A stretch of 39,535 nt of DNA from Bacteroidota bacterium (GCA_035292425.1 DATDQD010000066.1:1-39535); one strand, 5' to 3'. Shown: positions 2,780-32,637, counted from the stretch's first letter. A program made the numbers and translations. The notes: generated from the letters alone by a model not told the origin.

Positions 2780-2953
2780 GGATGACCCTTCCGCTGATGA
2801 TGAATGAATGACCGATGGCGTTGAATTTACGATTACTCTAAGGAGTTGTCAAGAGTAGTCGTTATTCCCGTCATACCGTCCTCCCCGCCATTCTTGATTG
2901 AATCTCCCATTTTGGGTATATTTTCACAATCATCACCCCAGGAAAGCGCTCCA

Positions 2954-4335: not shown

Positions 4336-4340
4336 CGGGC

Positions 4341-6110: not shown

Positions 6111-6116
6111 GAATGT

Positions 6117-7979
6117 ATGACTTTTAACTTCCGCGACACGTCGCTCATCCCGGTTTGGGAGAAAGTGCAGAAGAGGGAACGCCTCTCGATGGCCGACGGC
6201 CTGGCGCTCTACGCAACGCCCGACCTGATCTCGCTCGGCAAGATGGCGAACTTCGTCCAGCAGCAGAAAAGCGGAGACGCCGTCTACTTCGTGCTCAATC
6301 AAAAAATCGAGCACACCAACATCTGCGTCCTGTCGTGCAAGTTCTGCGACTTCGCCGTGAAGAAGGGCGACCCCGAAGCCTACGAGATGACCACCGGGGA
6401 TATTCTCTCCACGCTCACGCCCGATATCACCGAGGTGCACATCACCGGCGGCATGCCGGCCGACTGGCCCTGGGAGCGGTACCTCGACATCGTCCGCACC
6501 ATCTGCAGGAAATATCCGAACATCGACGTCAAGGCGTTCACCGCCGTGGAGATCGACTTCTTCCACAAGAAATTCAAAATGCCGGTCGGGGAGGTCCTGC
6601 GGCAGCTGAAAGAGGCGGGGCTGAAAACAATGCCGGGCGGCGGGGCGGAGGTTTTCTCCGAGCGCGTGCGCCGTCTGCTTTTTAATCAGAAAATCGGAGC
6701 GAAGGGATGGTTCGGCGTGCACAAGGCGGCGCACCGGTTGGGCATTCCGACCAACAGCACGCTCCTCTACGGGCACATCGAGACGCTCGGGGAACGGCTC
6801 GACCACATGATCCAGCTGCGCGAGGCCCAGGACGAGACCGGCGGGTTTCTCACCTTTATCCCCCTCGCATTCCAGCCGGGTGATACCGGCATCAAACCGC
6901 GCGATCGGTTCACGTCGGCGATCGACGACCTGAAGACGATCGCGATTTCGCGGCTGATGCTCGACAACTTCCCGCATATCAAGGCCTACTGGGTGATGCT
7001 CACCGAAGAGGTCGCCTCCGTCGCGCTCAACTTCGGCGCCGACGACATGGACGGCACGGTGGGACAGGAGCGGATCGCCCATGACGCGGGAGCCACCAGC
7101 CCGATGAAGCTGGCGAAGGACCGGATCATTCGATTGATAAAGGACGCGGGAAAGATCCCCGTCGAGCGGGACGTCTATTATAACCCCCTGAAGGTGCACG
7201 CGGATAACGTCATCGGAAAGATTCCCTACCTCAATTCTTTGCCGTTCCACAGTGATTTCGAGAAGGGCCCCTTTAAAATCCTTCCGATCGTCCCGCGCAG
7301 GATGGGGTTGCTGGCGGCCGACGGCCAGCTGGTGGCGGGGCTCTTTTCCCTGATGGATTACTACCGGAACGAATCGACGCTCGAGCTCCTGGACTGGTGC
7401 ATCGCCACTCGCGACCAGGTGAAGAGCGTGATGCTCTTCTCGAACCACGGCTGGGCCGACCTGGACGGGAAGCGCATCGGCGTCACCGACGAGACGGCGA
7501 CATCCATCGGGCTCCTGCGCCTCCTGCTCCGGAAGAAGTACAACGTGAAGGCGGAGTTCGTCCGGCTGCACGCGGGCGTGAACAGCTACGCCGACTTCGA
7601 CGCCGTACTGTTGATCGGCGACCAGGCGCTCTACCACAACAGGCACGGACTCGCGGGCTTCGAGCTGGTTTACGACCTGGCGGCCGAGTGGTACGACTGG
7701 AAGAAGATGCCGTTCGTCTTCGCGGTGTGGGCGGTGAAGAAAGATCTCCCCCGGGAAACGAAGAATGCGCTCTGCGCGACGATCGCGGAATCGCTCCGCA
7801 GGACGGAGGGACGTTACCGGGCGATCGGCGAACTCCACGGCAAAATGTTGCGCCTCGCACCCGCGGACGTGGAAGAATACCTCGAGGGTTTCAACTATAC
7901 GCTGGGCGACAGGGAAAAGGAAGCGATGATGGAATTCAGAAAACTCACGGCCGAAGTGAACCCGGGGGTGACGATATGA
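6117..7979 (+). CDS. Fusion protein: radical-SAM futalosine-pathway enzyme (MqnE-like, tentative) plus C-terminal MqnA-like chorismate dehydratase domain
   Basis: N-terminal about 360 aa: CX3CX2C radical-SAM motif HTNICVLSCKFCDF, then GGGAEVF and LYGHIET blocks of the MqnC/MqnE/CofH family. From about aa 365 (nt ~7209): IGKIPYLNSLPFH... and FVFAVWAV, typical of the MqnA/MqnD (VitK2 biosynthesis) periplasmic-binding-like fold. Confidence 0.8.
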   Translation: MTFNFRDTSLIPVWEKVQKRERLSMADGLALYATPDLISLGKMANFVQQQKSGDAVYFVLNQKIEHTNICVLSCKFCDFAVKKGDPEAYEMTTGDILSTLTPDITEVHITGGMPADWPWERYLDIVRTICRKYPNIDVKAFTAVEIDFFHKKFKMPVGEVLRQLKEAGLKTMPGGGAEVFSERVRRLLFNQKIGAKGWFGVHKAAHRLGIPTNSTLLYGHIETLGERLDHMIQLREAQDETGGFLTFIPLAFQPGDTGIKPRDRFTSAIDDLKTIAISRLMLDNFPHIKAYWVMLTEEVASVALNFGADDMDGTVGQERIAHDAGATSPMKLAKDRIIRLIKDAGKIPVERDVYYNPLKVHADNVIGKIPYLNSLPFHSDFEKGPFKILPIVPRRMGLLAADGQLVAGLFSLMDYYRNESTLELLDWCIATRDQVKSVMLFSNHGWADLDGKRIGVTDETATSIGLLRLLLRKKYNVKAEFVRLHAGVNSYADFDAVLLIGDQALYHNRHGLAGFELVYDLAAEWYDWKKMPFVFAVWAVKKDLPRETKNALCATIAESLRRTEGRYRAIGELHGKMLRLAPADVEEYLEGFNYTLGDREKEAMMEFRKLTAEVNPGVTI

Positions 7980-9073
7980 TCCAGCTCCCGGCGCTGTGCG
8001 ACAAAGCCCGCAACGGCGGGCGGCTCGCACCGGAGGAGGGTGTGCTTCTCCTGAAACACGCCGAACTGCTGGAACTGGGCGACCTGGCGAACGGCGTCCG
8101 GGCCCGGAAAAACCCCGGGCCGAAGGTGACGTTCGTGGTGGACACCAACCCGAATTATACGAACGTCTGCAACATCGATTGCATTTTCTGCGCCTTCTAC
8201 CGGCACCCGGGGGAAGAGGGCGAATACACGTACAGCGTCGATCACATGATCGGCGAATTCAGGCGGGCGGCCGCAAGCGGCGTCACCACCGTCCTCCTCC
8301 AGGGCGGCGTCAACCCGGCCCTGTCATTTTCGTACTATCTCGATATGGTGCGGCGCACAATCGCCGAGGTCCCGGAAATCCATCCCCATTTTTTCTCAAC
8401 ATCCGAAATCATCGGCATGGCCGGCGTCTCGGGGCTCACGGTACCGGAAGTCCTCAGGCAGTTGTGGGACGCGGGCTTGCGCACGATCCCCGGCGGCGGC
8501 GCAGAGATCCTCAACGACAGGGTGAAGAAGAAAATCAGCCATTTGAAGGGCAGTTCCGACGACTGGATGATGGTGATGCGCGAGGCGCACAGGATCGGCT
8601 ACAGAACCACCGCGACGATGATGTACGGGCACCTCGAGACCGACGAAGAGATCGTCGAACACCTCGAGCGGATACGACGCCTGCAGGACGAGACAGGCGG
8701 GTTCACGGCGTTCATCCCCTGGAGCTTCAAGCCGGGGAACACGCCGCTCGAGAAGATCATCCCCCACTACGCCACGCCGGTGCGCTACCTCCAGGTGCTT
8801 GCCGTTTCACGGATCTATCTCGACAATTTCGACCACATCCAGGCGTCGTGGTTCTCGGAGGGGAAGAAGACGGGCCAGATCGCGCTCCACTTCGGGGCGG
8901 ACGATTTCGGGGGGACGTTGTTCGAAGAGAACGTGCATGCGGCAGCCAACTTCGTCAACAGGAGCAGCGCCGACGAGGTCGTGAACCTCATTCGCGATTC
9001 GGGCTTCATTCCCGCCCAGCGGGACACCCTTTATAATATTCTCAGAGTGTTCGATCCCGCGGCGGCGGCGTAA
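7976..9073 (+). CDS. mqnC: Radical-SAM futalosine-pathway enzyme (MqnC-like cyclic dehypoxanthine futalosine synthase, tentative)
   Basis: ATG 7976 overlaps the upstream TGA (ATGA). Motif YTNVCNIDCIFCAFYR (CX3CX2C), plus GGGAEIL, MMYGHLET and FIPWSF blocks. The 5' extension of ORF 7397..9073 overlaps the preceding gene and is Arg/Gly junk. Confidence 0.8.
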   Translation: MIQLPALCDKARNGGRLAPEEGVLLLKHAELLELGDLANGVRARKNPGPKVTFVVDTNPNYTNVCNIDCIFCAFYRHPGEEGEYTYSVDHMIGEFRRAAASGVTTVLLQGGVNPALSFSYYLDMVRRTIAEVPEIHPHFFSTSEIIGMAGVSGLTVPEVLRQLWDAGLRTIPGGGAEILNDRVKKKISHLKGSSDDWMMVMREAHRIGYRTTATMMYGHLETDEEIVEHLERIRRLQDETGGFTAFIPWSFKPGNTPLEKIIPHYATPVRYLQVLAVSRIYLDNFDHIQASWFSEGKKTGQIALHFGADDFGGTLFEENVHAAANFVNRSSADEVVNLIRDSGFIPAQRDTLYNILRVFDPAAAA

Positions 9074-9623
9074 GCGCTTGCGGCTTTATCCCCCTGTACT
9101 CACCCGCCAGATCACGGTCGAGGGTCTTCCCCAGCGATCGCAGCCATTTCTCCAGGTAGGCATCATCCGTTCGAGGCGAGCGGGCGAGGATACCCCGGAC
9201 GTCTTCCAGGTCCCGCGGACGACCTGCGACGAGTTTATGGATGATGAGATCTTCGACCGAAACGAATCTCACCATCCTCTCGCCGAGGGGAACTGAAATG
9301 GCGCGTCGGAGGGCTTCCCGCTCATATTCGGAGAACGAGAAGATGAGGTCTACCCTGATGCCGCTCGCCTTCTCCACCAGCGGGAGAACGTGCGTTTCGA
9401 AGGTAAACCGTTCGATGTCGGATGCGGCCACGTCCAGGCCGGAGCCATCCAGGGACCTGAGGACGTCTTCCAACTTGTCAATGTCATTTCCGAGTGTGAT
9501 GTCGATGTCACGCGTGAGCCTCGGTTCGCCGTGATACAGGACGGCCTGTCCGCCGATCACCATGTACGGGATCGAAGCCCTGTCCAGGAGGGATGCGAGT
9601 TTAACGAGGAGGGTTTGAAACAT
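9042..9623 (-). CDS. Nucleotidyltransferase-fold protein (AbiEii/DUF6036-like motif)
   Basis: Internal ATG 9623 gives MFQTLLVKLASLLDRASIPYMVIGGQAVLYHGEPRLTRDIDITL, that is the GGxA..G..R.T.DID NTase signature. Its 3' end overlaps the convergent mqnC-like 3' end by 32 nt. Confidence 0.6.
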   Translation of the reverse strand: MFQTLLVKLASLLDRASIPYMVIGGQAVLYHGEPRLTRDIDITLGNDIDKLEDVLRSLDGSGLDVAASDIERFTFETHVLPLVEKASGIRVDLIFSFSEYEREALRRAISVPLGERMVRFVSVEDLIIHKLVAGRPRDLEDVRGILARSPRTDDAYLEKWLRSLGKTLDRDLAGEYRGIKPQALTPPPRDRTL

Positions 9624-9816
9624 CGGAGTTAAGCATCGCCGCGAGTCGGATATCATCCTCGATGCCTTCCAGCAAATCGTCTCCCTTGAAGTGGCCGAAG
9701 TGTCTCGCCTCCTCATAGAGACTGTCCAGGATCCTGAACTTCATTTCGATGGTGAGATGGTCCGCGGCGCGGGACCATCGATCGAATTCCTCGTATTTAT
9801 CAAGATTCGTAATCAT
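9601..9816 (-). CDS. Small acidic hypothetical protein upstream of the nucleotidyltransferase
   Basis: 71-aa ORF with non-shadow-like composition (MITNLDKYEEFDRWSRAADHLTIEMKFRILDSLYEEARHFGHF...). Overlaps the NTase start by 23 nt. No domain recognised. Confidence 0.4.
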   Translation of the reverse strand: MITNLDKYEEFDRWSRAADHLTIEMKFRILDSLYEEARHFGHFKGDDLLEGIEDDIRLAAMLNSDVSNPPR

Positions 9817-9882
9817 AGATGAATATACGTATCTCCCGTCTGAAAATCACCGGGAGCCCGCCTGAGAAATTTCCGGCTCCCG

Positions 9883-10716
9883 TCAGACCAGCCTGAACTC
9901 CTTCACCGCCGGCAGCCCGACCTTCGGGCCGGCACGCCTGAAGAGCTCCTTCAGCCCCGCCTTGCCCCTCTCGCCCATGTCGATGGTCAGATCATTGACG
10001 TACATCTTCACAAACGTTTCGCCCTTCTTCGCGTCGATGCCGCGGCCCCACCCGAGGGCGTAGGGTATCGATTCATCCTGGTGTTTGTAGCCGTACTCGA
10101 TGCTGTCGCGCAGGCCCAACGAGAGCTCGCGGGCCAGCTTTTCCCCGAGGTCCTTTCGGACCACGTCCAGGCCGAGCGGAAGGGGCAGCCCGCCCGTTTC
10201 GTCGCGCCAGAGTTCGCCGAAGTCCATTATTTTATGGTACCCCTGTTCCCGGTAGGTGATTTGCCCCTCATGGATCACCACGCCCGCGTCGATCCTCCCC
10301 TCGTCGATCATCGGCATGAGCCGGTCGAAGGGTCGGTCGATGTGCCCGATCCCCTCGGTGAATATCCGGAACAGGAGCGTCGCGGTGGTGAGGGGACCGG
10401 GGGTGCCGACGGTTTTCCCTTTCAGCTCGGCGAGCGTTGTATACTTTTTCGAGATGAGCACGGGGCCGTATCCGTCGCCCATGCTCGCCCCGGTCCGCAT
10501 GATCCAGTACCGGTCCTGTACATAAGGAAAGGCGTGGGCCGAGATTGCCGTGACCTCCAGCTCGCCTTTCATCGCGCGCGCGTTTAATGATTGAATGTCC
10601 TCCAGCATGTGCTCGATCCTGATGCCGTCGAGCTTGACCTTCCCGCTCGCCAGCCCGTAAAACATGAATGCGTCGTCGGGGTCCGGGCTGTGCCCCACGC
10701 GGACGAGTTTTTCCAT
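9883..10716 (-). CDS. mqnD: MqnD-like (1,4-dihydroxy-6-naphthoate synthase) / MqnA-MqnD family protein
   Basis: 277 aa. N-terminus VRVGHSPDPDDAFMFYGL resembles the GHSPCPND.F.F block of MqnD. Periplasmic-binding-protein-like fold signature, in mqn genomic context. Confidence 0.72.
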   Translation of the reverse strand: MEKLVRVGHSPDPDDAFMFYGLASGKVKLDGIRIEHMLEDIQSLNARAMKGELEVTAISAHAFPYVQDRYWIMRTGASMGDGYGPVLISKKYTTLAELKGKTVGTPGPLTTATLLFRIFTEGIGHIDRPFDRLMPMIDEGRIDAGVVIHEGQITYREQGYHKIMDFGELWRDETGGLPLPLGLDVVRKDLGEKLARELSLGLRDSIEYGYKHQDESIPYALGWGRGIDAKKGETFVKMYVNDLTIDMGERGKAGLKELFRRAGPKVGLPAVKEFRLV

Positions 10717-10857
10717 CGAATGGTCGGTTGAAGTGGTGATCGCGGCAACAATATAAAAAATCGGCGCGTGAATTCCATGCCGCGGCGAAATTGAAAATCT
10801 CGCGGGAAGTTTCTACTTTCCTGCACACGCGACAATCCGACAACCGAAAGCCCCTCC

Positions 10858-12222
10858 ATGCCCATTCAGACCTGCAACCCCGCGACCGGAGAAGTGCTGA
10901 AATCGTTTCCCCCGATATCCGACAAGCACCTCGAGGAAAAGATCGAAAAGGCCCGCACCCGGTTCATCGCCCACCACAAGACCTCTTTCACCGAACGCTC
11001 GGCGTTGATGAGGAAAGCCGGTGAAATCCTTGAAGCCGGGAAGGAGGCCTTCGCGAGGATGATGACGCTCGAGATGGGAAAGCTCTATACGTCCGCCCTC
11101 GCCGAAGCGTCGAAATGCGCCTGGGTCTGCCGGTTCTATGCCGACGAGGCGGAGAAATTCCTGGCCGACGAGCTTGTGCAGACCAGCGCGACGAAAAGTT
11201 ACGTGCGGTACGAACCGCTCGGGCCGGTGCTCGCGATCATGCCGTGGAATTTCCCCTTCTGGCAGGTGTTCCGCTTCGCCGCACCGGCGATCATGGCGGG
11301 GAACGTGGGTCTCCTGAAGCACGCCTCCAACGTCCCGCAATGCGCGCTCGCCATCGAGGATATCTTCCGGAGGGCGGGCTTCCCCGAAGGCGTGTTCCAG
11401 ACGCTCCTGTTACCCTCCGCGGGGACCGCGAGGGTGATCGAGGACTTCAGGATCAAGGCTGTGACGCTGACCGGCAGCGACATGGCAGGGAGGGAGGTGG
11501 GCGGCGTCGCGGGTTCGTCGATCAAGACCTGCGTGATGGAGCTGGGCGGGAGCGATCCGTTCATCGTGATGCCGGGCGCCGACATGGATATGGCCGTCCC
11601 GACCGCCGTGAAGGCGCGCACGGTCAACAACGGTCAGTCGTGCATCGCGGCGAAGCGGTTCATCCTCCACCGCGACATCGCCTCCACGTTCACGGAACGG
11701 TTCGTGGCCGAAATGAAGGAACTTAAAACCGGCGACCCGATGGATCCGGCGACCGATGTCGGTCCCCTCGCCACGCCCGAAATCCTGGAAGACCTCGACC
11801 GGCAGGTGAGAAAATCGGTCCGGAAGGGGGCGCAGCTGCTGCTCGGCGGTGAGCGTTTACCCGGGAAGGGTAACTTCTATCCCCCGACCGTGCTCACGGA
11901 TATTCCGAAGGACTCCCCGGCCTACAGGGAGGAATTCTTCGGGCCGGTGGCCCTGCTGTTCACTGTCGACAGTGCGGAGGATGCCGTTCAGCTCGCCAAC
12001 GACTCGCCGTTCGGGCTCGGTTCGAGCGCGTGGACGAACGATGGGAGGGAAAAGGCGCTCTTCATCGAAAACCTGGAGGCGGGATCGGTCTTTGTCAACG
12101 AGATGGTGTCGTCGGACGTGCGCCTGCCGTTCGGCGGAGTGAAGAATTCAGGCTATGGGAGGGAGCTGAGCGTCCACGGCATCAGGGAGTTCGTGAACGT
12201 GAAGACGGTGTATGTGAAATAG
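10858..12222 (+). CDS. NAD(P)-dependent aldehyde dehydrogenase (succinate-semialdehyde dehydrogenase-like)
   Basis: 454 aa. ALDH hallmarks FPFWQ, LTGS, the catalytic-Glu region VMELGGSDP and the catalytic-Cys region NNGQSCIAAKRF. Confidence 0.9.
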   Translation: MPIQTCNPATGEVLKSFPPISDKHLEEKIEKARTRFIAHHKTSFTERSALMRKAGEILEAGKEAFARMMTLEMGKLYTSALAEASKCAWVCRFYADEAEKFLADELVQTSATKSYVRYEPLGPVLAIMPWNFPFWQVFRFAAPAIMAGNVGLLKHASNVPQCALAIEDIFRRAGFPEGVFQTLLLPSAGTARVIEDFRIKAVTLTGSDMAGREVGGVAGSSIKTCVMELGGSDPFIVMPGADMDMAVPTAVKARTVNNGQSCIAAKRFILHRDIASTFTERFVAEMKELKTGDPMDPATDVGPLATPEILEDLDRQVRKSVRKGAQLLLGGERLPGKGNFYPPTVLTDIPKDSPAYREEFFGPVALLFTVDSAEDAVQLANDSPFGLGSSAWTNDGREKALFIENLEAGSVFVNEMVSSDVRLPFGGVKNSGYGRELSVHGIREFVNVKTVYVK

Positions 12223-12268
12223 GCGGGGGCCCGGCGAAACGGACACGCCGGCGCGGTCGCCGGGATTG

Positions 12269-13612
12269 TCAGGCCGGATTCGTCGTGGAGGGCAGATAGC
12301 TGTGGATCCTCTCTTCAACCTCCTTGAGACCCTCCTTCCGTCCTTCCTCGATTTCCCATATCGAGATCAGCGGGAACAGCTTTGCGAAGACCATGTATCC
12401 AAGGATGAACACCGCGATCCCTCCGGCAAAAAGGGCCCATTCTGTCATCGAGGGGATATAGATCCCCATCGGGACGTGCATTCTCGGATTGGCGAGCGAC
12501 GGGACAACGATGATCAAACGCTCCAGCCACATTCCGATCACCACCGCGATGGAGGCGATTAAAATGCCGGCAATCGTTTTGAACCGTTTAAAACTGAGGA
12601 GTACCATCGGGATGACAAAATTACAGACGACCATTCCCCAGAAAAAGAAGGCAAACGGTCCGGTAAATTTATACATGATGATTTCCATTTCGTGCGGCTC
12701 GTCTCCGAAGACGCCGGTGAGATATTCGGAAAACGTGAAATAAAACCACACGATGGACATGATCAGGAGAAGCATGCTCAGGTACTGCAGATGGATCACC
12801 TTCAGGTACGCCTCGAGGCGGAACGCCTTTCTGAATATGATCATCACGATCAGCAGGGCGGCGATGCCTGAAAATATCGCGCCAACGACGAAATAGGGTC
12901 CGAAGATCGTGCTGTGCCAACCCGGCTGCAGCGTCATCGAGAAAATGTAGGAGATGACCGTATGCACGGATACGGCGATCGGAATGACCATCACCATCAG
13001 CAGGTTGATCGCACGGTTGAGTACGCGCTTCTGATGCTCCGTGCCCGTCCATCCCCACGCCATGAATGTGTACATCCAGGTGAGTTTTCCCCCCTGGTCC
13101 CTCAGGCGCGCGATGTCCGGGATCATCGGAATGTACAGGTAGACCGTGCTGGCTGTGAAGTACGCGGTTATGCTGGTCACGTCCCAGAGAAGGGGAGATT
13201 GCAGACGACCCGATTCGAGGAGGCTGAACATGCGGTCCGGCCTGCCGAGATCCAGGATCGGGTGAAGACCGCCGATCGCCAGGACGATGGCGGTGATGAC
13301 CTCGGCCATCCGCGTGATCGGCCGCCGCCATTCCGCCTTCGAGAGGCGGAGGATCGCCGAAATGAGCGTTCCGGCGTGGCTGATCCCGATGAAGAAAACG
13401 AAGTTGACGATGTAGAAGCCCCAGGTAATCGGTTGTGCCATTCCGGTGACACCCAGGCCGGAACGCAGCTGCGTGACATACATATAGAGGGCCCACACGA
13501 TCACCGCGACCAGGACGGCAAGCGACAGGTAGTAACCCCTGCCGGTGTGATAGATCGGCCGGTAGAGGGCGGCATCCAGATCGTTCTCGTACGGGAGATG
13601 TTTTTCTGTCAT
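12269..13612 (-). CDS. NrfD-family quinone-interacting membrane subunit, ActC/QrcD-like (long, about 10 TM)
   Basis: 447-aa polytopic protein. The block WGFYIVNFVFFIGISHAGTLISAILRLSKAEWRRPITRMAE is typical of the long NrfD/ActC/HybB type. Start overlaps the FeS gene stop by 4 nt. Confidence 0.85.
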   Translation of the reverse strand: MTEKHLPYENDLDAALYRPIYHTGRGYYLSLAVLVAVIVWALYMYVTQLRSGLGVTGMAQPITWGFYIVNFVFFIGISHAGTLISAILRLSKAEWRRPITRMAEVITAIVLAIGGLHPILDLGRPDRMFSLLESGRLQSPLLWDVTSITAYFTASTVYLYIPMIPDIARLRDQGGKLTWMYTFMAWGWTGTEHQKRVLNRAINLLMVMVIPIAVSVHTVISYIFSMTLQPGWHSTIFGPYFVVGAIFSGIAALLIVMIIFRKAFRLEAYLKVIHLQYLSMLLLIMSIVWFYFTFSEYLTGVFGDEPHEMEIIMYKFTGPFAFFFWGMVVCNFVIPMVLLSFKRFKTIAGILIASIAVVIGMWLERLIIVVPSLANPRMHVPMGIYIPSMTEWALFAGGIAVFILGYMVFAKLFPLISIWEIEEGRKEGLKEVEERIHSYLPSTTNPA

Positions 13613-14301
13613 CGTGTCCTCTTCACGAGATAGTACACTTTCGGTTCGACTCCCAGGTCCTCCATGACGCGGGATGCCCGGTAATCCCCCGACATCTTAT
13701 AGACGCTGCTCCCCTTGTCTTCGATGTCGCCGAAATAGATCGCGTCGGCGGGACAAATTTCGGCGCACGCCGGCACATATTCCCCGTCATTGATCGGCCT
13801 GTCCTCCTCATCCGCAGTTTCCTTCACTTTCATCAGACGGTGAGAGCAGAACGTGCACTTTTCCACCACCCCCACCATGCGCCTGGATACATCCGGGTTG
13901 AAGCAGGTCGACGCGCCTTCGATCCACGCGGGATCCTTCCAGTTGAATACCTTCGCCGTGAACGGGCATGCGACCATGCAATATCGGCAGCCGATGCATC
14001 GGTGGTACACCTGCGCAACGAGCCCCTCCTCGTTGCGGTAGGTCGCCCCCACGGGGCAGACCCGCGTGCAGGGGGGGTTATCGCAATGGAAACAGGGTTT
14101 CGGCATCCGTTTTATTTCAATGCCCGGATAGTCGCCCCCGTACTCGGTGATCATATCCATCCAGTGCATCACTCTCCCCTGCAGGGCTTCGTCCGGCTCG
14201 ACAATCGGCACGTTGTTCTCCATTTTGCACGCCGCCATGCACGCCCCGCACCCGGTGCACCTGTCCAGATCAATCGCCATTGCCCATTTAGCCATTCGCA
14301 T
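13609..14301 (-). CDS. 4x[Fe-S] ferredoxin subunit (PsrB/DmsB/ActB2-like)
   Basis: Four Cys groups: CTGCGACMAAC, CFHCDNPPC..C, CIGCRYCMVAC, CTFCSHR...CAEIC. Confidence 0.9.
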   Translation of the reverse strand: MRMAKWAMAIDLDRCTGCGACMAACKMENNVPIVEPDEALQGRVMHWMDMITEYGGDYPGIEIKRMPKPCFHCDNPPCTRVCPVGATYRNEEGLVAQVYHRCIGCRYCMVACPFTAKVFNWKDPAWIEGASTCFNPDVSRRMVGVVEKCTFCSHRLMKVKETADEEDRPINDGEYVPACAEICPADAIYFGDIEDKGSSVYKMSGDYRASRVMEDLGVEPKVYYLVKRTR

Positions 14302-14311
14302 ATCCTCGGGT

Positions 14312-16768
14312 TTACGACGTACGGGATATTCTCACTTTGGTCGCCTCGAGGGCGGGCTTCCCGCTCACGAGATCGTGGAGATTTCTCATGATGGTGTTCG
14401 GATTTACGCCGTGGCCTCGCGCGTAACGACCGTACGAGGTGTGTCCCATGCCGAAGGGAATCGCAACGACGTCGGGCATGATCCCGGGGGTGATTTTCGC
14501 TTTCACGCGGACATTCCCGATCGAGGACTCCACCCATACCCAGTCATCGTTCGAGACGCCCGCGGCCGCGGCCGTCTCCGGGTGAATCTCCGCCCACGAC
14601 TCCCACGGCGAATGCACCGAGTATCCGAACAGTTCCTGCATCAGCGGAAGCGCGGCGCCCGCTCCGTCGCGGTTCGGCATCACCTGGAAGGTCACGAGGT
14701 ACATCGGACGGTCGCCCTCGTACGGAACGGCTTCATGGTGCGGCATCATTGCATTGTCGCCGCGCGCGGAGATGTTCAGCCGGCTGAGCACGGATTCGAG
14801 ATTGCGCGACGAACCGGTCTCGTCCAGCTTCAAGAGGAGCCGGTTGAATTCCGAGTTCAGCCTCTGTGAAAAAAATTCGAACTTTCCCGAGGGCGTCGTG
14901 AAAAGCTCGTCGAGGTTCTTCTTCTTCCGCGCCGGATTCCACCAGCCGCCATTGAGAAGGAGCTGCTCCCAGAATTCGTCAAAAGTGGCATAGCGCCCGG
15001 TCTGCCATCCCCGCCGCTGCAGGAATTCAATCCAGGGCTGTTTTTGTCCCTTCGCGACGACCGCGCCCTGCCCGGACCTGAAGAGCCCCTCCGCCGCGTA
15101 ACGCACCTCTTCCCGGTAATCGGTAAAGGCCGCCGCGCTTTTCACCGTTCCGCCTACCCGGCGTGCCAGTTCGGTGAACACATCCCCGGTCCCCCGCGTA
15201 TCGTGCAACGGCTCCACGACCGGCTGCTGTATGCCGAAATGGGAAAATCCCACGGTCGGGACATCGGAGATTTCACCCCAGCTTTCCAGGAACGTATGCT
15301 CGGGCAATATCAGGTGGGCGTACTCGCTCGTTTCGTTGATGATTGAATCGAAGCTCACGACGAGCGGTATCTTCTTCAGCGCGCCGGCGAAATCCAGGTG
15401 GTTCAGCGTCTGGAAGAGGGGATTCCCGTGGTATAAGAAGAGAACGCTCAACGGATACGGACTATCCGCGAGGATATTTTTAGCGAAGCTCTCGATCGAA
15501 AAGTCCGAGAGCGGGAACGGGACATCCCGCGAGCTCGTGAGGGGCTCCGACCGGCTCCCTGCCGCGGCGACCGCGTCGACCTCCACGTCGGGAAGGGGCC
15601 TGACGGGGGCCTGGTCGGTGAAGAAGACCCCTCCCTCTGCCTCGTAATTTCCCAGGAGCGCGTTGAGACTCTGAACCGCCATCTGGGCGAACGTGCCGTT
15701 GGTGTTGTCGACGGCCCCTCCGTCCCCCAGCACGAGGGATTTGGGCGTATTGCCGAGCAGGCGTCCGAGCTCGAGGATTGCAGCGGTCGGCACTCCTGTG
15801 ATTTCGGACACCTTCTCCGGATAGTAGTTCCCGAGCACGATACTCCGGAATCCGAGATGCCTGCTCCCCGAACGGTCCGCCCAGTCCTCGAACCCGAACG
15901 TGCTGCCTCCGACGAATCGGGCGTCATACAGTTCCTCCCTGATGAGGACATAGGCGATCCCGAGCGCCAGCGCCCCGTATGTTCCCGGGCGTATCGGCAC
16001 CCACTTGTCGGCGTTGGCGGCCGTCAGGCTCATCCGCGATTCCACCTGGATGTATTGCGTCTGCAGCTCACGGTGATGACTGTAGAGTTTCGTGTAATAG
16101 ACGGGCGAATAACCCTCCCCGAGAAAATTCGACCCGAAGCTTACAATCAGCTTCGCGTTCAGAAAGTCATAGGCCGGTATCCTGGAATGACCGTGCAGCA
16201 GGGAGTGGGGGACCATGTCGTTCTGCGAGGGGGAAAACCGGAAGTAGTTCGGGGACCCGTACGCTTTCATGAAGCGGGCGATGTGCTGTTCCATCAGTCC
16301 CCGTTCGTCGTATCCGAGCACCGCGACCTGTCGGGATTTTTGTCCGCCGCGAAGTTCAGTGAGTCTTTCGGCGATGATCTTCAAGGCCTCGTCCCAGGTG
16401 ATGGGTTCCCACCTCCCGCTCCCGGGGTTCGCCGTGCGCTTCATCGGGCCCTTCAACCGGTCCGGGTGATATAACATGTGAAGCGCGTTGAGCCCCAACG
16501 AACACATCCCGCCCAGGTTGACGGGATAATGAGGGTTGCCTCTGATGGAGACCGGGAGGCCGTCAACCATCCGGACGCTGATACCGCATCCGCCCGGACA
16601 GAGCCCGCAGATGGTGTTTTTCCAGGTTTCAATCCCCGGTCCGGTCCTGACACGGTGGATCAGCCGGTCCGGTATTTCCAGGACCTCGTCCATCGCGCAG
16701 CCACCCACGGCAAGCGAGACCGAGGTCCCCCCCACCAGTTTGATAAAATCCCGCCGTTTAATTTCCAT
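14312..16768 (-). CDS. Tat-exported molybdopterin-oxidoreductase-family (MopB) subunit
   Basis: 818 aa. Twin-arginine leader MEIKRRDFIKLVGG. N-terminal FS0-type motif CGLCPGGCG...x27..C (CX2CX3C...C). No in-frame TGA. Confidence 0.9.
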   Translation of the reverse strand: MEIKRRDFIKLVGGTSVSLAVGGCAMDEVLEIPDRLIHRVRTGPGIETWKNTICGLCPGGCGISVRMVDGLPVSIRGNPHYPVNLGGMCSLGLNALHMLYHPDRLKGPMKRTANPGSGRWEPITWDEALKIIAERLTELRGGQKSRQVAVLGYDERGLMEQHIARFMKAYGSPNYFRFSPSQNDMVPHSLLHGHSRIPAYDFLNAKLIVSFGSNFLGEGYSPVYYTKLYSHHRELQTQYIQVESRMSLTAANADKWVPIRPGTYGALALGIAYVLIREELYDARFVGGSTFGFEDWADRSGSRHLGFRSIVLGNYYPEKVSEITGVPTAAILELGRLLGNTPKSLVLGDGGAVDNTNGTFAQMAVQSLNALLGNYEAEGGVFFTDQAPVRPLPDVEVDAVAAAGSRSEPLTSSRDVPFPLSDFSIESFAKNILADSPYPLSVLFLYHGNPLFQTLNHLDFAGALKKIPLVVSFDSIINETSEYAHLILPEHTFLESWGEISDVPTVGFSHFGIQQPVVEPLHDTRGTGDVFTELARRVGGTVKSAAAFTDYREEVRYAAEGLFRSGQGAVVAKGQKQPWIEFLQRRGWQTGRYATFDEFWEQLLLNGGWWNPARKKKNLDELFTTPSGKFEFFSQRLNSEFNRLLLKLDETGSSRNLESVLSRLNISARGDNAMMPHHEAVPYEGDRPMYLVTFQVMPNRDGAGAALPLMQELFGYSVHSPWESWAEIHPETAAAAGVSNDDWVWVESSIGNVRVKAKITPGIMPDVVAIPFGMGHTSYGRYARGHGVNPNTIMRNLHDLVSGKPALEATKVRISRTS

Positions 16769-16782
16769 TGTTCACTCCGGGA

Positions 16783-17310
16783 TCAACGATGACAGGAGAG
16801 ACAGTCATTCGATACATTTTTGCTCCTATGGCAATCCATGCAGTTTTCCATCGTCACCTCCAGGAACGCCGAAGTCACCGGCGCCGTCATGGCGCTGACC
16901 ATTCCGTGACACGCGCTGCATTCCAGCTCGCCGCCGACGACATGCCTGCGGTGGGAGAAATAGACATGGTCGGGGACCTGATAGATGTTCACCCAGGGAA
17001 TTTCCTTCTCTTCGGACACGTATTTCAACAGGGCGAGCTCCTCCTGGGATTCGGACAGCGGGGCAGTTTCATGACAGGTACGGCATATTTCGATCGATGG
17101 AAGTGTTGCCGAGGCCATGGTCTCGACGTAGAGATGACACTCCTGGCACTTGAGACCGGCATTTTCGATATGGACCCGGTGGTTGTAAGCGATCGGCTGC
17201 TTCACATCGTCGTCCGAGACAAACGCACACGATACCATAAACACCGGCATCACGAACAGGATGATGTTCACGGTGAAACGGGCAACCCGCGGCCAGTTCA
17301 ACATCGGCAT
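16783..17310 (-). CDS. Membrane-anchored pentaheme cytochrome c (ActA-like)
   Basis: 5 CXXCH motifs (CQECH, CRTCH, CSACH, CMDCH, CLSCH) after an N-terminal TM (FTVNIILFVMPVFMV). Start taken at ATG 17310. The longer ORF to 17388 overlaps the upstream gene. Confidence 0.85.
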   Translation of the reverse strand: MPMLNWPRVARFTVNIILFVMPVFMVSCAFVSDDDVKQPIAYNHRVHIENAGLKCQECHLYVETMASATLPSIEICRTCHETAPLSESQEELALLKYVSEEKEIPWVNIYQVPDHVYFSHRRHVVGGELECSACHGMVSAMTAPVTSAFLEVTMENCMDCHRSKNVSNDCLSCHR

Positions 17311-17338
17311 GGGTAGTCGCACGGATGAATGAAGGAGT

Positions 17339-18502
17339 TTACGGTTTTGTGGATTCCCTGAGATACGAATATAAATTCCGCATCTCATCGCTGGTGAGCG
17401 CCGGCCACTTCTTGTTCTGGGTGATCAGCATATCCTCCATACCGGCAGCGTGATTCCACATCAGCTGGATCATCCGGACCGGTGAATTGAAATGGGTGAT
17501 ACTCATGATGTCGGGACCCCTGCCGGATCCGCCCTTTTCGTGACAGTTGGAACAACCTTTTGACTGGAAGACGGCCCCCCCCTTTTTCCCGTCACCGGGC
17601 TTGTCCTCGAAGTCAAGGAAATACAGATACGCAATCATGTCCGCCATCTCATTCCCTTCGAACTTCGGCCATTCGATCGATTCGTCCTTCATTTTTTGCG
17701 CCATCATCGGACCGTGATTCCACATCAGGCTGGCCGTTTCGGTCACGCTTTTTTTCAACCGGATCTGGGAGAGGTTGGGGGCGAGTATTTTCTTGGCTTC
17801 CCCTTCGGCCACGTGGCATTGATTGCATCCCTTCGACTCGAAGACTTCCTTCCCGTTCTTGGGGTCACCCGGGCTTATTCCCGCCTCGACGCCGGTCAGC
17901 GCCGCCTGCCGGATGTAGACCGTGATGTCGGTGATATCCTGACCAGTCAACATGGGAAAATTCAAACCGGCTTTTTCAATCTGCTCTCTCATCCCGGGAA
18001 CGTGGTTCCACATGGATTGCACAATATAGAGGGGAGAGGGGGTGGTCTTGATGGAGTCGAAGGCGTCGCCCACCGATCCGCCGCCGCCCCCGATCGAATG
18101 ACAGGTTGTGCATCCTTTGCTCTCGAGGACTTTTTTTCCCTTTGCCACCCCGCCCGGTTCGCCGAGATACCGCAGATAGTAGAGGAATCCGAACAGGTCG
18201 AGCATTTCCTTCTCGCTGAATTGCGGCCTCTCCATGCGCATCTGCCTGAACTTGCGGTTCATCTGGGGGGTATGGTTCCAGATGATCGTCGCCAGTTCCA
18301 GCACGCTGCCGAAATAGAGGTCTGAACTCAGGGAGGGACCGGCCGTGCCTCCGTATCCGCCGATCGCATGGCATTCAATACAGCCTTTTTCCTCGAAGAC
18401 CATCCTTCCCTGGAGGGGATTTTGGGGAAGGTCAATTTGCTGGGCGTACAGCGTACCCGCAAAAATAAAAACACAGAGCATCCAGCAGCGATGGAGTGCC
18501 AT
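17339..18502 (-). CDS. Periplasmic cytochrome c made of four tandem class-I monoheme domains
   Basis: Signal peptide. Four repeats of G-C-x2-C-H ... WNH-x-P/A-x-M: CIECH/WNHTPQM, CTTCH/WNHVPGM, CNQCH/WNHGPMM, CSNCH/WNHAAGM. Confidence 0.85.
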   Translation of the reverse strand: MALHRCWMLCVFIFAGTLYAQQIDLPQNPLQGRMVFEEKGCIECHAIGGYGGTAGPSLSSDLYFGSVLELATIIWNHTPQMNRKFRQMRMERPQFSEKEMLDLFGFLYYLRYLGEPGGVAKGKKVLESKGCTTCHSIGGGGGSVGDAFDSIKTTPSPLYIVQSMWNHVPGMREQIEKAGLNFPMLTGQDITDITVYIRQAALTGVEAGISPGDPKNGKEVFESKGCNQCHVAEGEAKKILAPNLSQIRLKKSVTETASLMWNHGPMMAQKMKDESIEWPKFEGNEMADMIAYLYFLDFEDKPGDGKKGGAVFQSKGCSNCHEKGGSGRGPDIMSITHFNSPVRMIQLMWNHAAGMEDMLITQNKKWPALTSDEMRNLYSYLRESTKP

Positions 18503-18524
18503 GGTATTCCTCCTCGGAGGTTGA

Positions 18525-18758
18525 TTAATTCTTCTTTTTCCCTTTTTGTAAACCCACGAAAACGTACGTCAGGACGGATGCCAACGTCGTGAATATCGGT
18601 ATGGCTACGATACTGATGCCGACGGACGCGCCCGGCATGTCTCGGAGTTCAATGGATAATGAAATGAGATTGATGATCCAGAGGGTAATGACGATCACGA
18701 AGAGCCATATCAGCGAGACACTGACGATCTGCGCTATGAAGATGATTTTATTCAGCAT
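18525..18758 (-). CDS. Small two-TM membrane protein (hypothetical)
   Basis: 77 aa, two hydrophobic helices, Lys-rich tail. Visibly more AT-rich than its neighbours. First ORF after a 247-nt gap. Confidence 0.45.
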   Translation of the reverse strand: MLNKIIFIAQIVSVSLIWLFVIVITLWIINLISLSIELRDMPGASVGISIVAIPIFTTLASVLTYVFVGLQKGKKKN

Positions 18759-19005
18759 ATGACTCTCTCGATCATCCTTTGTCGTCGTGGGGCTGTCTTG
18801 AGAGGAACTGAAATCTGAGCTTCAAAATTGATACCAACTTTCTTCATCCCGGGGAGCTCCCCCGGAGTTCAGAATACGGCCCTTATCGGATATTTTATCG
18901 CTCCGCGATGTTGGTGGAAGGCGACATTGTCAATTTTGAAATCCGTCCTCGGGTAAATTCTCATATTTAAGAATCAACCTGCCGGTGGCCCCCCGGGGGT
19001 TCCCC

Positions 19006-20505
19006 TCAGGTTTTATCGTACAGGACATCCTTCTTATCGGGGGGATGTTTTTCGAGCCGCTTTACGTAGACATAGACCAAAACAGAAAGCGCCGTCATGA
19101 TGAATGTTGCTATCGCCAGGCCCCAGCGCCTGAAATAATATTCCTCGATCGCGATCCGGGCTTCGGTTGTGACCACCGCGGTCACGACGACTCCGTTGTC
19201 GATCACTTCCCGGAATTTCCCGATGTCGAACGAGTGAACCATCGTGCGCGACTCCAGCCTTGCCTGGCGGGCGTCGCGCAATTTAAACTTGGCGTCGGTG
19301 ATTTCCATCCCTTTTTGTTCCGCTTCATTGACGAGCGCCGTCGCACCCTTTTCCGCCTGCTCGAGGCTGTCCGCGAGCGTGCGCATCGTCGACGCCACCT
19401 GATAGGCCTTCGATTCCGGTTCGCCCCCGTGGCACCAGCTGCAGACCGCCTCTTCGGAAACGCCCAGGAGCTTTTCCGAGGCGGCGAGAATTTCGTGGTT
19501 GCCATGGCACGTTTCGCATTCCGGCATGTTCGCGCTGTCGAAGGCTTTCTTGTGCGGGCTGGTTGCAAAGAGCTCGGCGTTGAGGGCGTGGCACGTGCCG
19601 CAGACATGGGACACGGATTCCACGCCCGGGGGAGCCGCAGCGTGATTTCCATGGCAGTCGTTGCAGGCCGGGGCGCCGATATCGCTTTTTTCGAGGAGGG
19701 CGACGCCATGGACGCTCTTGGAATACTCATCGAGCTGGTCCGATGCGATCCCGTATCCCTTCATGTAGCGGGCGTCGGCGTGACAGGTCCCGCATGTCGC
19801 GGGAATGTTCCACGGATAGACGCGGGATTTGACGTCCTTCGCCGACCGGATCTCGTGGCCCCCGTGGCAGCTGGCGCACTCCGCGACCTTCCGATCTCCC
19901 TTCGCGTTCCGTTTCCCGTGAACGCTGGTCCGGTATTTCTCGACCTGATCCACCGGCAATGCGGGATTATAGGTGCGCATGTACGACGGGTTGGAATGAC
20001 ACTTCCCGCACGTTTTCGTCACGTTCAACGGATACACCGGTGAACTGACATTGTCCACGGGGACCACCCCGTGAGCGTTGTGACAGGTCGCGCACTGTAC
20101 GATGCTTTCCTTGCCGCTGACCGATCCCTTTCCGTGCACGCTGGCGGCCAGCAGCTCCTGCTGATCCCACGGGAGATCGGATTTATATTTATTCACCATG
20201 ACCGCGGCGCTGGCGTGGCAGCCCGCGCACATGCGCGTCACGTCGTCTCCTTTCGGGACCCCCGCGAATCCCGCCGCGGGAGCCATCGCCTTCTCCATGT
20301 CGTCCGCGGTGCGATCGCCCCCGTGGCAGTCGGCGCACGAAACACCCTTCTCCCGATGGATGTCGTTCCTGAACAGTACGGCCGGCCCGTCGCCGAGGGT
20401 TTCATGGCACGTTAGGCACTGGTCCTGGGCGTTGCCGTCAGAGTGCGCTGAGCAGCAGATCGCGGCGAGAAAGAGGAGGCGAATAATCCGGAGATGACGT
20501 TTCAT
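19006..20505 (-). CDS. Undecaheme cytochrome c with C-terminal membrane anchor (third subunit of the Rieske/cyt b complex)
   Basis: ATG 20505 ([18 protein letters not shown]...) overlaps the cyt b TGA (ATGA). 11 CXXCH motifs. C-terminal [23 protein letters not shown]. The longer track ORF to 20901 runs into the cyt b gene. Confidence 0.85.
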
Positions 20506-21581
20506 GAGAGCCATCCGAGAATAGTCAGGACGATGATGTACATGACGGCGACTATACCGATATAATTGATCAGTCGGTTTTTCTCTCTGCGGGAACTTTT
20601 TCTGTCCCAGAAAGGAACGATCGTCCACAGGAATCCGGCGAGCCCGAACATGAGGATGCCCAGGACTTCGCCGTCGATGATGACCACCTTCGCCGGGATG
20701 TATTTCAGCGTTTGAAACATGAACATGAAATACCACTCCGGCTTGATGCCGGCCGGGGCGGGGGCGAAGGCGTCGGCTTTCTGTCCCAGCTCCCACGGGA
20801 AGAAGACGGCGAGGATCGCGAGAAGATTCAGCACGATCAGCCACAGGAGCAGGTCCCGCAGCAGAAAATTCGGAAAGAAGGGCATCGTTTTTCCAACCCA
20901 CTCCAGCTCGCCCTCGAGGGCCATGGGTTCGCTCATTCCCTGGCGTTGCACCAGAATGAGGTGGATTCCCAGGAGAACGGTGAAGATTCCCGGGAAAACG
21001 GCGACGTGGAAGCCGAACAGACGCGACAGCGTGGCGCCCGTGACGTCCTCGCCGCCCCGGAGAAAGATCATGATCGGCTTTCCGATGATCGGGACGACCC
21101 CGGCGATATCCGTACCCACTTTCGTCGCGAAGAAGGCGAGTTCATTCCACGGGAGCAGGTATCCGCTGAACCCGAATCCCAGCACGAGGAAAAACATCAG
21201 CATGCCGGTCAACCACGTCATCTCGCGGGGTTTCCGGTAGGCCTTGGTGAAGAAGACGCTGAACATGTGGATCATGGCGGCCAGGACGAAGAGGTTCGCC
21301 GCCCAGCTGTGTACCGACCGGATGAGCCAGCCGAACATCACCTTCGACATGATGAATTTAATGCTTTCGAAGGCGAGTTCTTCGCTGCCCTTATAGTAGA
21401 GCAGAAGGAGTATTCCCGTGACGACCTGGATGATGAACAGGAACAGCGATACCCCCCCGAAGTAGTACCAGACGGAGTGGCTGTGCACCGGCACGTACTT
21501 CTTGCCGAGGAACCCGACGAGGTCCTCCAGGTGGACCCTGTCATTCACCCAGTAGTACAATCGTTTGAGCTTCTTGTTCAT
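20502..21581 (-). CDS. Cytochrome b (b6-like N-terminal part fused to a subunit-IV-like part)
   Basis: His pairs H-x13-H ([16 protein letters not shown]) and H-x14-H ([17 protein letters not shown]). PEWY Qo motif (IKPEWYF). 359 aa. Confidence 0.9.
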
Positions 21582-22036
21582 GCCTTTTTCGATATTAAGA
21601 CCTCCTCACCCTGCACGATCACGCGGAATTCGTCGAGCGGTCTGGGCGGCGGACCGGCGATGTTGCGGCCCGTCAGATCGTAGGTACCGTTATGACAGGC
21701 GCACCAGATCGTTCCTTTTTCACGGCGATACTGAACGGTGCAGTCCAGATGGGTGCAGACCGCCGAGAACGCCCTGAATTCCCCCTCCTGTGTGCGAACC
21801 AGCAGCACTGGTTTCGTTCCGAACTTGATGATCTGACCGCTGTCTCGGTCAAACTCATCCACCTTCCCCGCTTTTACTGTGGATACCTCGACCTCTCCCG
21901 ATTTAGGCGGCTTCAGATACGCAACGATGGGATACAGGACCGAACCGGTGAGCGCGGCCAGGCTGCTCCCCAACATGACCTTAAGGAAATCCCTTTTACC
22001 CGGATTCCGAACTTTATTCTGTTCACTCACTGTCAT
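21578..22036 (-). CDS. Rieske [2Fe-2S] subunit
   Basis: Tat-like leader (GKRDFLK) and the cluster boxes CTHLDC and CACHNG. ATGA overlap with the cyt b start. Confidence 0.9.
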
Positions 22037-24069: not shown

Positions 24070-24070
24070 G

Positions 24071-32578: not shown

Positions 32579-32637
32579 CCCTGTATAAAATATAATCAAT
32601 CCCCGGTTCCGCGGGTATGATATGGAAAAGGTCGAAA

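Follow-up and report, generated by a model that had tools for sequence, protein, structure and literature searches.

Alternative complex III (ACIII) and Qrc are textbook respiratory complexes built from molybdoenzyme parts, and the route by which a catalytic subunit was turned into a scaffold is not known. That question is raised by a stretch of 39,535 nucleotides from a Bacteroidota bacterium (GCA_035292425.1, DATDQD010000066.1:1-39535; the whole stretch is called the window here), which carries on its minus strand genes for a pentaheme cytochrome c, a large subunit of the molybdopterin oxidoreductase type (MopB), a four-cluster iron-sulphur (FeS) subunit and a membrane protein of the NrfD family. 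A reading made from the sequence alone had placed this module at 12269-17310, likened it to ACIII and Qrc, and pointed out that its MopB keeps the cysteine motif of an N-terminal iron-sulphur cluster (FS0) and has no cysteine at the place of the molybdenum ligand. What, then, does such a complex do, and how does it stand to these respiratory complexes and to the catalytic enzymes of the Arr and Psr type?

We propose that six genes encode a periplasm-facing membrane menaquinol:cytochrome c oxidoreductase, resembling ACIII, in which MopB is a non-catalytic scaffold, and we put the probability of this reading at about 0.6. The complex would work like ACIII or Qrc yet fails defining features of both, and of catalytic Arr and Psr enzymes as well; it is an ACIII-type membrane and cytochrome part joined to an Arr-like large subunit. 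What is observed is the homology of the subunits, their motifs for binding cofactors, the pattern of conservation and the linkage of the genes; from this we infer the direction of electron flow, the absence of pterin, hitch-hiker export and energy coupling.

Organisation of the locus

The gene order described earlier (pentaheme cytochrome, MopB with a twin-arginine translocation (Tat) signal, four-cluster FeS subunit, NrfD of 447 amino acids) was found on the minus strand, with the equivalents of the ActB1 and ActB2 parts in separate genes (MopB, 14312-16768; FeS, 13609-14301), and the 3' side is indeed closed by a convergent gene, a plus-strand aldehyde dehydrogenase at 10858-12222. The unit does not start at 17310, however: two further conserved genes on the same strand, for a small membrane protein and a tetraheme cytochrome, lie upstream of the pentaheme gene with spacings of 22-28 nt and carry it to 18758. 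All six genes are tightly packed (12269-18758; intergenic distances of 10 to 28 nt and one 4-nt overlap), and a gap of 247 nt separates them from an upstream Rieske/cytochrome b/multiheme cluster. The features of the module are as follows.

18525..18758, minus strand: small membrane protein of 77 amino acids with two predicted transmembrane helices (open reading frame translation, two hydropathy peaks)
17339..18502, minus strand: tetraheme cytochrome c, 387 amino acids (four CxxCH; Pfam Cytochrom_C / Cytochrome_CBB3)
16783..17310, minus strand: pentaheme cytochrome c, 175 amino acids (five CxxCH; one N-terminal transmembrane helix)
14312..16768, minus strand: MopB, 818 amino acids (RRDFIK Tat motif; Pfam Fe4S4, Molybdopterin and Molydop_binding)
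16502..16609, minus strand: FS0 motif C54-x2-C57-x3-C61-x27-C89 in MopB (translation)
16190..16261, minus strand: degenerate Mo-ligand segment YGSPNYFRFSPSQNDMVPHSLLHG in MopB (HMMER alignments to ArrA and PsrA, both with the ligand cysteine where MopB has a deletion of three residues; multiple alignment with cysteine-bearing relatives)
13609..14301, minus strand: four-cluster FeS subunit, 230 amino acids (ActB2/QrcC-like)
13966..13998, minus strand: group-III cysteine motif CIGCRYCMVAC in the FeS subunit (alignment to Rhodothermus marinus and Roseiflexus ActB)
12269..13612, minus strand: NrfD-family membrane subunit, 447 amino acids (about 10 transmembrane helices, ActC-like)

In the window, as in the relatives nearest to it, the genes for the small protein and the tetraheme cytochrome directly precede the pentaheme gene; among relatives with MopB identities down to 41% they directly follow NrfD, which is the position of ActD and ActE in ACIII. 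Since their adjacency is conserved in relatives, we take the unit to be six genes. As an ordered set or as a block, the module is kept in all complete loci of what we call the core family (Bacteroidota/Ignavibacteria, Rhodothermales, Calditrichaceae, KSB1, Fidelibacterota, Desulfobacterales and Thermoanaerobaculales), which spans at least five phyla. A scan of 12000-19200 for promoters and terminators gave nothing above shuffled expectation, and the operon boundaries therefore rest on spacing and synteny.

Fold and FS0 cluster of MopB

Among solved structures MopB matches ArrA best (E 2e-72), followed by PsrA (6e-48) and ActB (4e-24 to 5e-12). Its NCBIfam scores are close to one another (QrcB 302, PhsA 298 and ArrA 280 bits) and miss every cut-off. 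An AlphaFold2 model (mean pLDDT 88, pTM 0.90) recovered ArrA as best Foldseek match, with a TM-score of 0.81, and PsrA next at 0.72; ActB was not among the 50 best matches. Pfam recognises the Molybdop_Fe4S4 domain (E 1e-10), and the FS0 motif, CGLCPGGCG followed after 27 residues by the fourth cysteine, reads exactly as had been quoted. The four cysteines, the twin-arginine motif and F8 are invariant in 38 aligned MopB homologs of 41-79% identity, and the four cysteines and the RR of the Tat motif in 27 of 27 core-family modules. The motif is no chance match and, as far as these alignments tell, is under selection despite the divergence of MopB.

The molybdenum site

The segment YGSPNYFRFSPSQNDMVPHSLLHG contains no cysteine, as claimed, and alignment with ArrA shows how it came to be so: a deletion of three residues at the ArrA motif SSVCAE takes the ligand cysteine with it. 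At the ArrA active site the RGRY, His, Ser, Cys and Lys positions are likewise replaced. Throughout the MopB family this loop has been shortened and is hypervariable; among the 38 homologs the segment has no conserved Cys, Ser or Asp.

We extended the comparison to an alignment of the family with 137 representatives from a 50%-identity library, ArrA and PsrA, and defined a polar signature as the columns conserved in at least 10 of 12 relatives that bear the ligand cysteine, ArrA and PsrA included. In ArrA-chain indices, the signature lies in the Lys or Arg after FS0, YDPDR, DPR, K224, PGTD, R692 and N787. Most columns conserved in the cysteine-bearing sequences are also kept in the window family, so the MopB fold is retained. 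Six of the eight signature positions are nevertheless lost from the core family and replaced by varying residues, namely the Lys or Arg two residues after the last FS0 cysteine, the first Asp of YDPDR, K224, the Asp of PGTD, R692 and N787. The first of these bridges FS0 to the pterin and is Leu, Ala or Met in the core family. All or nearly all six are retained in two sister types of module, those of Rokubacteria and of Syntrophaceae. 

Rates of divergence point the same way. Mean pairwise identity in the core family is 45% for MopB, 65% for the FeS subunit and 74% for NrfD, the most conserved subunit; in cysteine-bearing three-subunit relatives the values are 60%, 56% and 41%. MopB is therefore the fastest-evolving large subunit of the core family, the reverse of the order in the cysteine-bearing relatives. 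On this evidence the pterin site is very probably gone from the window MopB family, and the protein is predicted to carry one [4Fe-4S] cluster, FS0, and no molybdenum- or tungsten-bis(pyranopterin guanine dinucleotide) (Mo/W-bisPGD). MopB would be non-catalytic because both the molybdenum ligand and the pterin-binding signature are lost.

The membrane and electron-transfer subunits

The remaining subunits bear out the assignment of the module to the ACIII/Qrc type: NrfD, the FeS subunit and the pentaheme cytochrome match ActC, ActB2 and ActA best. For the FeS subunit the best solved match is the C-terminal domain of ActB (6f0k_B, E 1e-59), for the pentaheme cytochrome the ActA chains of four ACIII structures (E 1e-23 to 1e-19). 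NrfD matches the four ActC chains (E 1e-70 to 4e-67) and then ActF; no PsrC match was returned from the PDB. Its alignment with R. marinus ActC is full-length at about 35% identity, and it keeps the ActC residues W82, I86, F89, P136, L166 and D169; H139 is replaced by Asp and D253 by Ile, as in the non-ACIII NrfD proteins of related modules. A menaquinol site and an ion pathway are predicted for it. The equivalog models of Qrc give scores that all fall below their cut-offs (QrcA 103 of 180, QrcB 302 of 440, QrcC 277 of 400 and QrcD 38 of 570 bits).

The FeS subunit begins directly at its first cluster, MRMAKWAMAIDLDRC, without a signal peptide of its own. Elsewhere in the window, an FeS protein at 23326-24069 that has no MopB partner bears its own Tat signal, RRKFF. 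We infer that the signal-less subunit is exported by hitch-hiking on the Tat signal of MopB, which would give a reason to retain a folded, cluster-containing MopB. Its third cysteine group reads CIGCRYC, against CIGTRYC in R. marinus and CVGTKYC in Roseiflexus, and CIGCR(Y/F)C is conserved in the FeS subunit of all core modules. In DmsB and NarH, replacement of the second group-III cysteine converts the quinol-proximal [4Fe-4S] cluster to [3Fe-4S]. Given the all-cysteine motif, a [4Fe-4S] cluster is predicted here instead of [3Fe-4S], so that the FeS subunit would carry four [4Fe-4S] clusters, unlike its counterparts in ACIII and Qrc.

The tetraheme cytochrome has a Sec signal peptide and CxxCH motifs at residues 41, 131, 226 and 317; each of its class-I domains, which are CcoP/SoxX/c550-like, has WNHxxxM after the heme motif. 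Nearly all relatives have four hemes in this protein. It gave no ActE match in the PDB. It is likely to be the electron exit, analogous to ActE, and its class-I domains would fit an exit of higher potential. The 77-residue protein is strongly conserved across phyla (..AS.GIS.VAIPVF.TLA..LTYVF.GL..), always adjoins the tetraheme gene, and has neither a Pfam family nor a match to Pfam ActD. No ActF was found: a second NrfD is absent from the module in the window and in relatives, and the accessory genes have no ActF match in the PDB. The earlier statement that the module lacks ActD, ActE and ActF thus holds for detectable homology and fails for subunit composition, where two accessory genes had been ignored. 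That NrfD and the small subunit are so highly conserved suggests, by analogy, an energy-coupling role as proposed for ActC and ActD.

Comparison with known complexes

ACIII was represented by the structures of R. marinus (6F0K), Flavobacterium johnsoniae (6BTM) and Roseiflexus (6LOD), and by 8K9E. The likeness is broad: a pentaheme ActA-like anchor, a four-cluster FeS subunit like the ActB C-terminus, a 10-helix ActC-like NrfD, a MopB-derived subunit without a molybdenum ligand, periplasmic orientation and Tat export, and a small membrane subunit and class-I cytochrome c at the ActD and ActE positions. In the window, however, separate genes encode MopB and FeS, FS0 is kept in MopB whereas ActB1 is devoid of cofactors, a [4Fe-4S] and not a [3Fe-4S] proximal cluster is predicted, ActF is missing, the 77-residue subunit has no homology to ActD, the exit cytochrome has four hemes instead of one, His139 and Asp253 of ActC are Asp and Ile, and MopB is far nearer to ArrA than to ActB1. 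The literature agrees that the B1 domain of ActB is without prosthetic groups, and states that the role of the FeS2-4 wire of ACIII is not known (PMC5928083). ACIII-like clusters that have B1 and B2 in two genes had been reported before (Refojo 2010, as cited in PMC9386147).

The sequence-only reading had taken ActB and QrcB to lack FS0, and this was confirmed for both. The N-termini of the four solved ActB chains have no cysteine at the FS0 region, and neither do 112 of 120 ActB N-termini from databases, the other 8 having one; the four-cysteine motif occurs in 0 of the 120, which are fragments that cover the FS0 region. The solved N-termini were retrieved with a 371-residue ActB piece from locus L006, described below; a protein search with the R. 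marinus ActB2 domain returned fragments only, and full-length ActB1 was not obtained. On the Qrc side, P0217, the sole representative scanned that qualifies as QrcB by NCBIfam (508 bits against 440), reads C-G-V-S at the FS0 positions, a single sequence with which the description of QrcB as free of redox cofactors (PMC13059093) agrees. Common retention of FS0 in true ActB or QrcB was accordingly not found, in 120 ActB N-termini and one QrcB. Canonical ACIII was rejected as an identification: FS0 is present, group III is all cysteine, and homologs of ActD, ActE and ActF are missing.

Qrc shares with the window a core of four genes in identical order, B and C as distinct subunits and a MopB-like subunit without molybdenum (in the window, by prediction), and QrcA, QrcB and QrcC are the top NCBIfam matches of three window subunits. 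It differs in that QrcB has no FS0, QrcC has a [3Fe-4S] cluster, QrcD belongs to another NrfD clade (window NrfD, 38 bits), there is neither a small subunit nor a tetraheme partner, and the complex is confined to Desulfobacterota (sulphate reducers), with cytochrome c3 as partner. Canonical Qrc was rejected, all four scores lying below cut-off and the FS0 cysteines being present.

With the catalytic Arr, Psr and Phs enzymes the module has in common the MopB fold (TM-score 0.81 to ArrA), the Tat signal, FS0, an NrfD-family anchor and a separate FeS subunit, which in the window is predicted to carry four [4Fe-4S] clusters and to be exported by hitch-hiking. Against this, the window MopB has neither the ligand cysteine nor the pterin polar signature, ArrA substrate residues are replaced, NrfD has 10 helices and not 8, and three extra cytochrome or membrane subunits are present. 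Arsenate reductase and polysulphide/thiosulphate reductase were rejected as identifications, in view of scores below cut-off, the missing ligand cysteine, the ActC-type NrfD and the extra subunits.

A precedent exists in complex I, where Nqo3/NuoG is a non-catalytic MopB relic that keeps an FS0-equivalent [4Fe-4S] cluster, N7. As a MopB-derived subunit without Mo-bisPGD (a cofactor that Nqo3 has lost; PMC10100899) that retains an FS0-type cluster, it parallels the window MopB; it belongs, however, to an unrelated cytoplasmic complex and to a MopB lineage related to formate dehydrogenase, and N7 is off the electron path whereas the window FS0 would end a continuous FeS wire.

Distribution and relatives

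The window module is a member of a large, widespread, unnamed family and not a one-off. Over 100 full-length MopB homologs of 41-79% identity were found by protein search, and, where named, they are called 'molybdopterin-dependent oxidoreductase', 'anaerobic selenocysteine-containing dehydrogenase' or 'DmsA precursor'. The search of representatives gave 1539 clusters at E <= 1e-30; among the top 150, 137 are full-length, about 125 of these without the ligand cysteine and nearly all with the four FS0 cysteines. A scan of one genome per species yielded at least 524 loci, the best 80 of which are all metagenome-assembled genomes (MAGs). Beyond the core family, related modules occur in Rokubacteria/Methylomirabilota, Acidobacteriota, Aminicenantes, Nitrospirota, Chloroflexota and Planctomycetota, and in relatives the module often adjoins a Rieske/cytochrome b complex. 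Ten sister MopBs were scanned and none reaches any NCBIfam cut-off.

A MopB tree (neighbour-joining on Kimura distances, 100 bootstraps, ActB1 left out), which is to be read as indicative only, places the QrcB representative inside the pentaheme-associated, FS0-bearing MopB clade with 70% bootstrap, beside cysteine-bearing enzymes; monophyly of the core family reaches 40%.

Three sister types deserve description. Modules of the Rokubacteria/Methylomirabilota type have the same six genes and keep the pterin signature and a cysteine near the ligand site, so that their MopB is, as its residues indicate, probably still a molybdenum or tungsten enzyme inside an ACIII-like architecture. Six loci are of this type (L064, L067, L071, L074, L077 and L086), with MopB near 8001-10400 in most; the MopB keeps the Lys after FS0, YDPDR, DPR, PGTD and Asn787, and its cysteine lies in IRVRCLPP. 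The Syntrophaceae/Syntrophorhabdus type, a pentaheme-MopB-FeS-NrfD module (L039, L043, L048, L049 and L050), mixes ancestral with derived states in another way: it keeps FS0 and the pterin signature, lacks the ligand cysteine (..ARGS-EG..), and has an FeS subunit that reads CIGVRMC, of [3Fe-4S] type. The Acidobacteriota/Desulfobacterota type has the pentaheme-MopB(FS0)-FeS-NrfD core with PGTE and no small subunit. Two further loci, L006 and L007, show an unusual order at 10001-14400, with an ActB2-like FeS protein, a cytochrome c, a cytochrome bd subunit-I-like protein and more cytochromes c; both assemblies appear frameshifted.

In the literature searched, no paper describing the window family or its cofactor pattern was found. 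The genome papers on Ignavibacterium, Melioribacter, Caldithrix, MBNT15 and KSB1/Planctomycetota report canonical or other ACIII-like clusters and not this family.

Proposed function

In the mechanism that we favour, menaquinol would be oxidised at the ActC-like NrfD, and electrons would enter the proximal FeS cluster, predicted to be [4Fe-4S], to branch there to the pentaheme wire. The pentaheme cytochrome would pass them to the tetraheme class-I (His/Met-type) cytochrome c, which may deliver them to periplasmic or terminal acceptors, and NrfD, probably with the two-helix subunit, would couple the oxidation to charge or proton translocation. MopB would take no part in catalysis; it would serve as scaffold and, as sole carrier of a Tat signal, export the FeS subunit. 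The remaining FeS clusters would lead to FS0 in MopB, the dead end of the path, and FS0 may be kept as the end of an FS4-to-FS0 wire for folding and stability or as a side electron store. Menaquinone is the expected quinone because the window carries genes of the futalosine pathway.

Several points weigh against this proposal. The weakest part of the proposal is the direction of electron flow: the class-I hemes argue for quinol oxidation, but a chain made up of [4Fe-4S] clusters only would fit a Qrc-like reduction of quinone at low potential as well, and the neighbouring Rieske/cytochrome b complex already oxidises quinol, so that the two could run in opposite directions. Two of the three conserved charged residues of the ActC quinol site differ in NrfD. 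The absence of pterin is deduced from sequence alone; the signature positions come from covariation with the cysteine in 12 sequences and are not measured contacts, the Pfam scores of MopB are still good (Molybdopterin 121 bits, Molydop_binding 67 bits), and arsenite oxidase offers a case in which Mo-bisPGD is bound although the protein supplies no ligand. Nor does a purely structural role readily account for an FS0 that is invariant and terminates a wire of five clusters. Finally, the close relatives are all MAGs, and the family is known only through its sequences.

Alternative explanations

The complex may instead run as Qrc does, with electrons from periplasmic cytochromes, donated for example by hydrogenase, formate dehydrogenase or an extracellular or Fe(II) source, reducing menaquinone electrogenically and the Rieske/cytochrome b-multiheme complex re-oxidising the quinol. 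The NCBIfam affinities of three subunits to QrcA, QrcB and QrcC and the nesting of the QrcB representative in the pentaheme-associated clade (neighbour-joining, 70% bootstrap) speak for this, as do an all-[4Fe-4S] FeS subunit, which suggests potentials below those of ACIII, the frequent Rieske/cytochrome b linkage and the wealth of multihemes in the window. Yet every Qrc score is below cut-off, and the subunit that would handle the quinone scores 38 against 570 bits for QrcD where it matches ActC at E 1e-70. Qrc, moreover, has a [3Fe-4S] cluster and a low-potential bis-His cytochrome c3, whereas the partner here is a class-I tetraheme protein, and no hydrogenase or formate dehydrogenase was found within the window. 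We consider this direction unlikely.

Alternatively, MopB could still be catalytic, with Mo- or W-bisPGD held without a cysteine ligand, or with FS0 feeding a new, non-pterin site; the metal might have no protein ligand, as in arsenite oxidase, or take Ser, Asp or Asn from the SQND stretch. In that case it would reduce or oxidise a periplasmic substrate of unknown kind, linked to quinol or to a cytochrome; a reductase of unknown substrate was what the sequence-only reading had offered as its alternative. Such an enzyme would account for an invariant FS0 placed where pterin would be fed, for the retention of the whole fold including domain IV in a confident ArrA-like model, and for the continued match of the Pfam pterin-domain models; a catalytic version probably exists in the Rokubacteria sister, whose same six genes include a MopB with pterin signature and nearby cysteine. 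It sits poorly with the loss of six of eight cysteine-linked polar positions without a conserved replacement, the short and hypervariable ligand loop, the Leu, Ala or Met in place of the bridging Lys or Arg, and a MopB that evolves faster than FeS and NrfD, opposite to the cysteine-bearing relatives; nor was any chaperone or molybdenum-cofactor gene found within the window. A catalytic MopB is in our judgement quite improbable.

Automatic annotation, with public names such as 'DmsA precursor' and 'molybdopterin-dependent oxidoreductase', would lead one to an ordinary reductase of the Psr/Phs or Arr kind that has one more cytochrome. This is hardly credible: among solved structures MopB does match ArrA and PsrA best, but its PhsA and ArrA scores (298 and 280 bits) are far under the cut-offs of 694 and 1600, the ligand cysteine is missing and Arr substrate-binding residues are replaced, NrfD is of the 10-helix ActC type without a PsrC match, and Psr and Arr have no counterparts of the pentaheme, tetraheme and small subunits.

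Other genes in the window

On the minus strand at 19006-22036 lie a Rieske protein (152 amino acids), a fused cytochrome b6/subunit-IV-like cytochrome b (359 amino acids) and a multiheme cytochrome c replacing cytochrome c1; an open reading frame of 631 codons in this cluster is over-extended, its homologs having about 495 residues. Many relatives have this cluster linked to the ACIII-like module. Next to it (22103-26340, minus) is a second, independent NrfD (408 amino acids) with a Tat-signal FeS protein (MMRRKFF...) and no MopB partner, together with two multiheme cytochromes, one of them NapC/NirT-like. At 26457-31814 (minus) follow a cytochrome b561-like membrane protein, a 672-residue multiheme cytochrome and a 793-residue fusion of multiheme c domains with a b561/DUF4405 membrane domain (CbcL-like), a set that would fit an island for electron transfer in the periplasm or outside the cell. 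A regulatory cluster beside this respiratory island (31748-35593, minus) comprises a universal stress protein, a Crp/Fnr-type regulator, YdjM and an adenylate/guanylate cyclase with an N-terminal 2Fe-2S ferredoxin domain.

On the other side of the module, 2846-10716 holds the futalosine-route menaquinone genes (UbiA, UbiD, radical-SAM MqnC/E-like and VitK2_biosynth). These include a 620-residue protein at 6117-7979 in which a radical-SAM/CofH_C domain is fused to a VitK2_biosynth domain, and between the menaquinone genes stands a DUF6036/AbiEii-type nucleotidyltransferase (toxin-like) gene (9042-9716, minus).

Evolution and significance

The idea that the module is an intermediate between Psr-like enzymes and ACIII/Qrc gains two features, the all-cysteine group III of the FeS subunit and the non-ACIII residues of NrfD, and can be kept as a likeness: the window family looks like a surviving in-between stage on the way from true molybdoenzymes to complexes of the ACIII/Qrc type. 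In this state the molybdenum site has very probably gone while FS0, the separate subunits and the all-[4Fe-4S] chain are kept, in many uncultured lineages of a kind common in sediments, groundwater and reactors. A further possibility, which we hold tentatively and do not consider probable, is that the family and its sisters are the surviving ancestral grade of Qrc and ACIII, and that FS0 is no relic but a working second outlet or inlet for electrons at the end of the FeS wire. An Arr/Psr-like enzyme would first have gained the pentaheme cytochrome and the 10-helix NrfD and then lost its pterin; later FS0 would have been lost and the proximal cluster converted to [3Fe-4S], with fusion of B1 and B2 and duplication of NrfD in ACIII. 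If this is true, a branched complex with a working FS0 would explain the FeS2-4 wire of ACIII.

Together with the probably cofactor-bearing Rokubacteria-type sister, the window family provides a natural series in which it becomes testable in what order the steps of evolution came and what the wire is for. There is also an error of annotation to correct. Genes of the family are labelled as DMSO, selenocysteine-type or generic molybdopterin oxidoreductases, and this mislabelling leads MAG surveys to infer too much sulphur, arsenic and DMSO respiration, while a probable quinol:cytochrome c oxidoreductase stays hidden.

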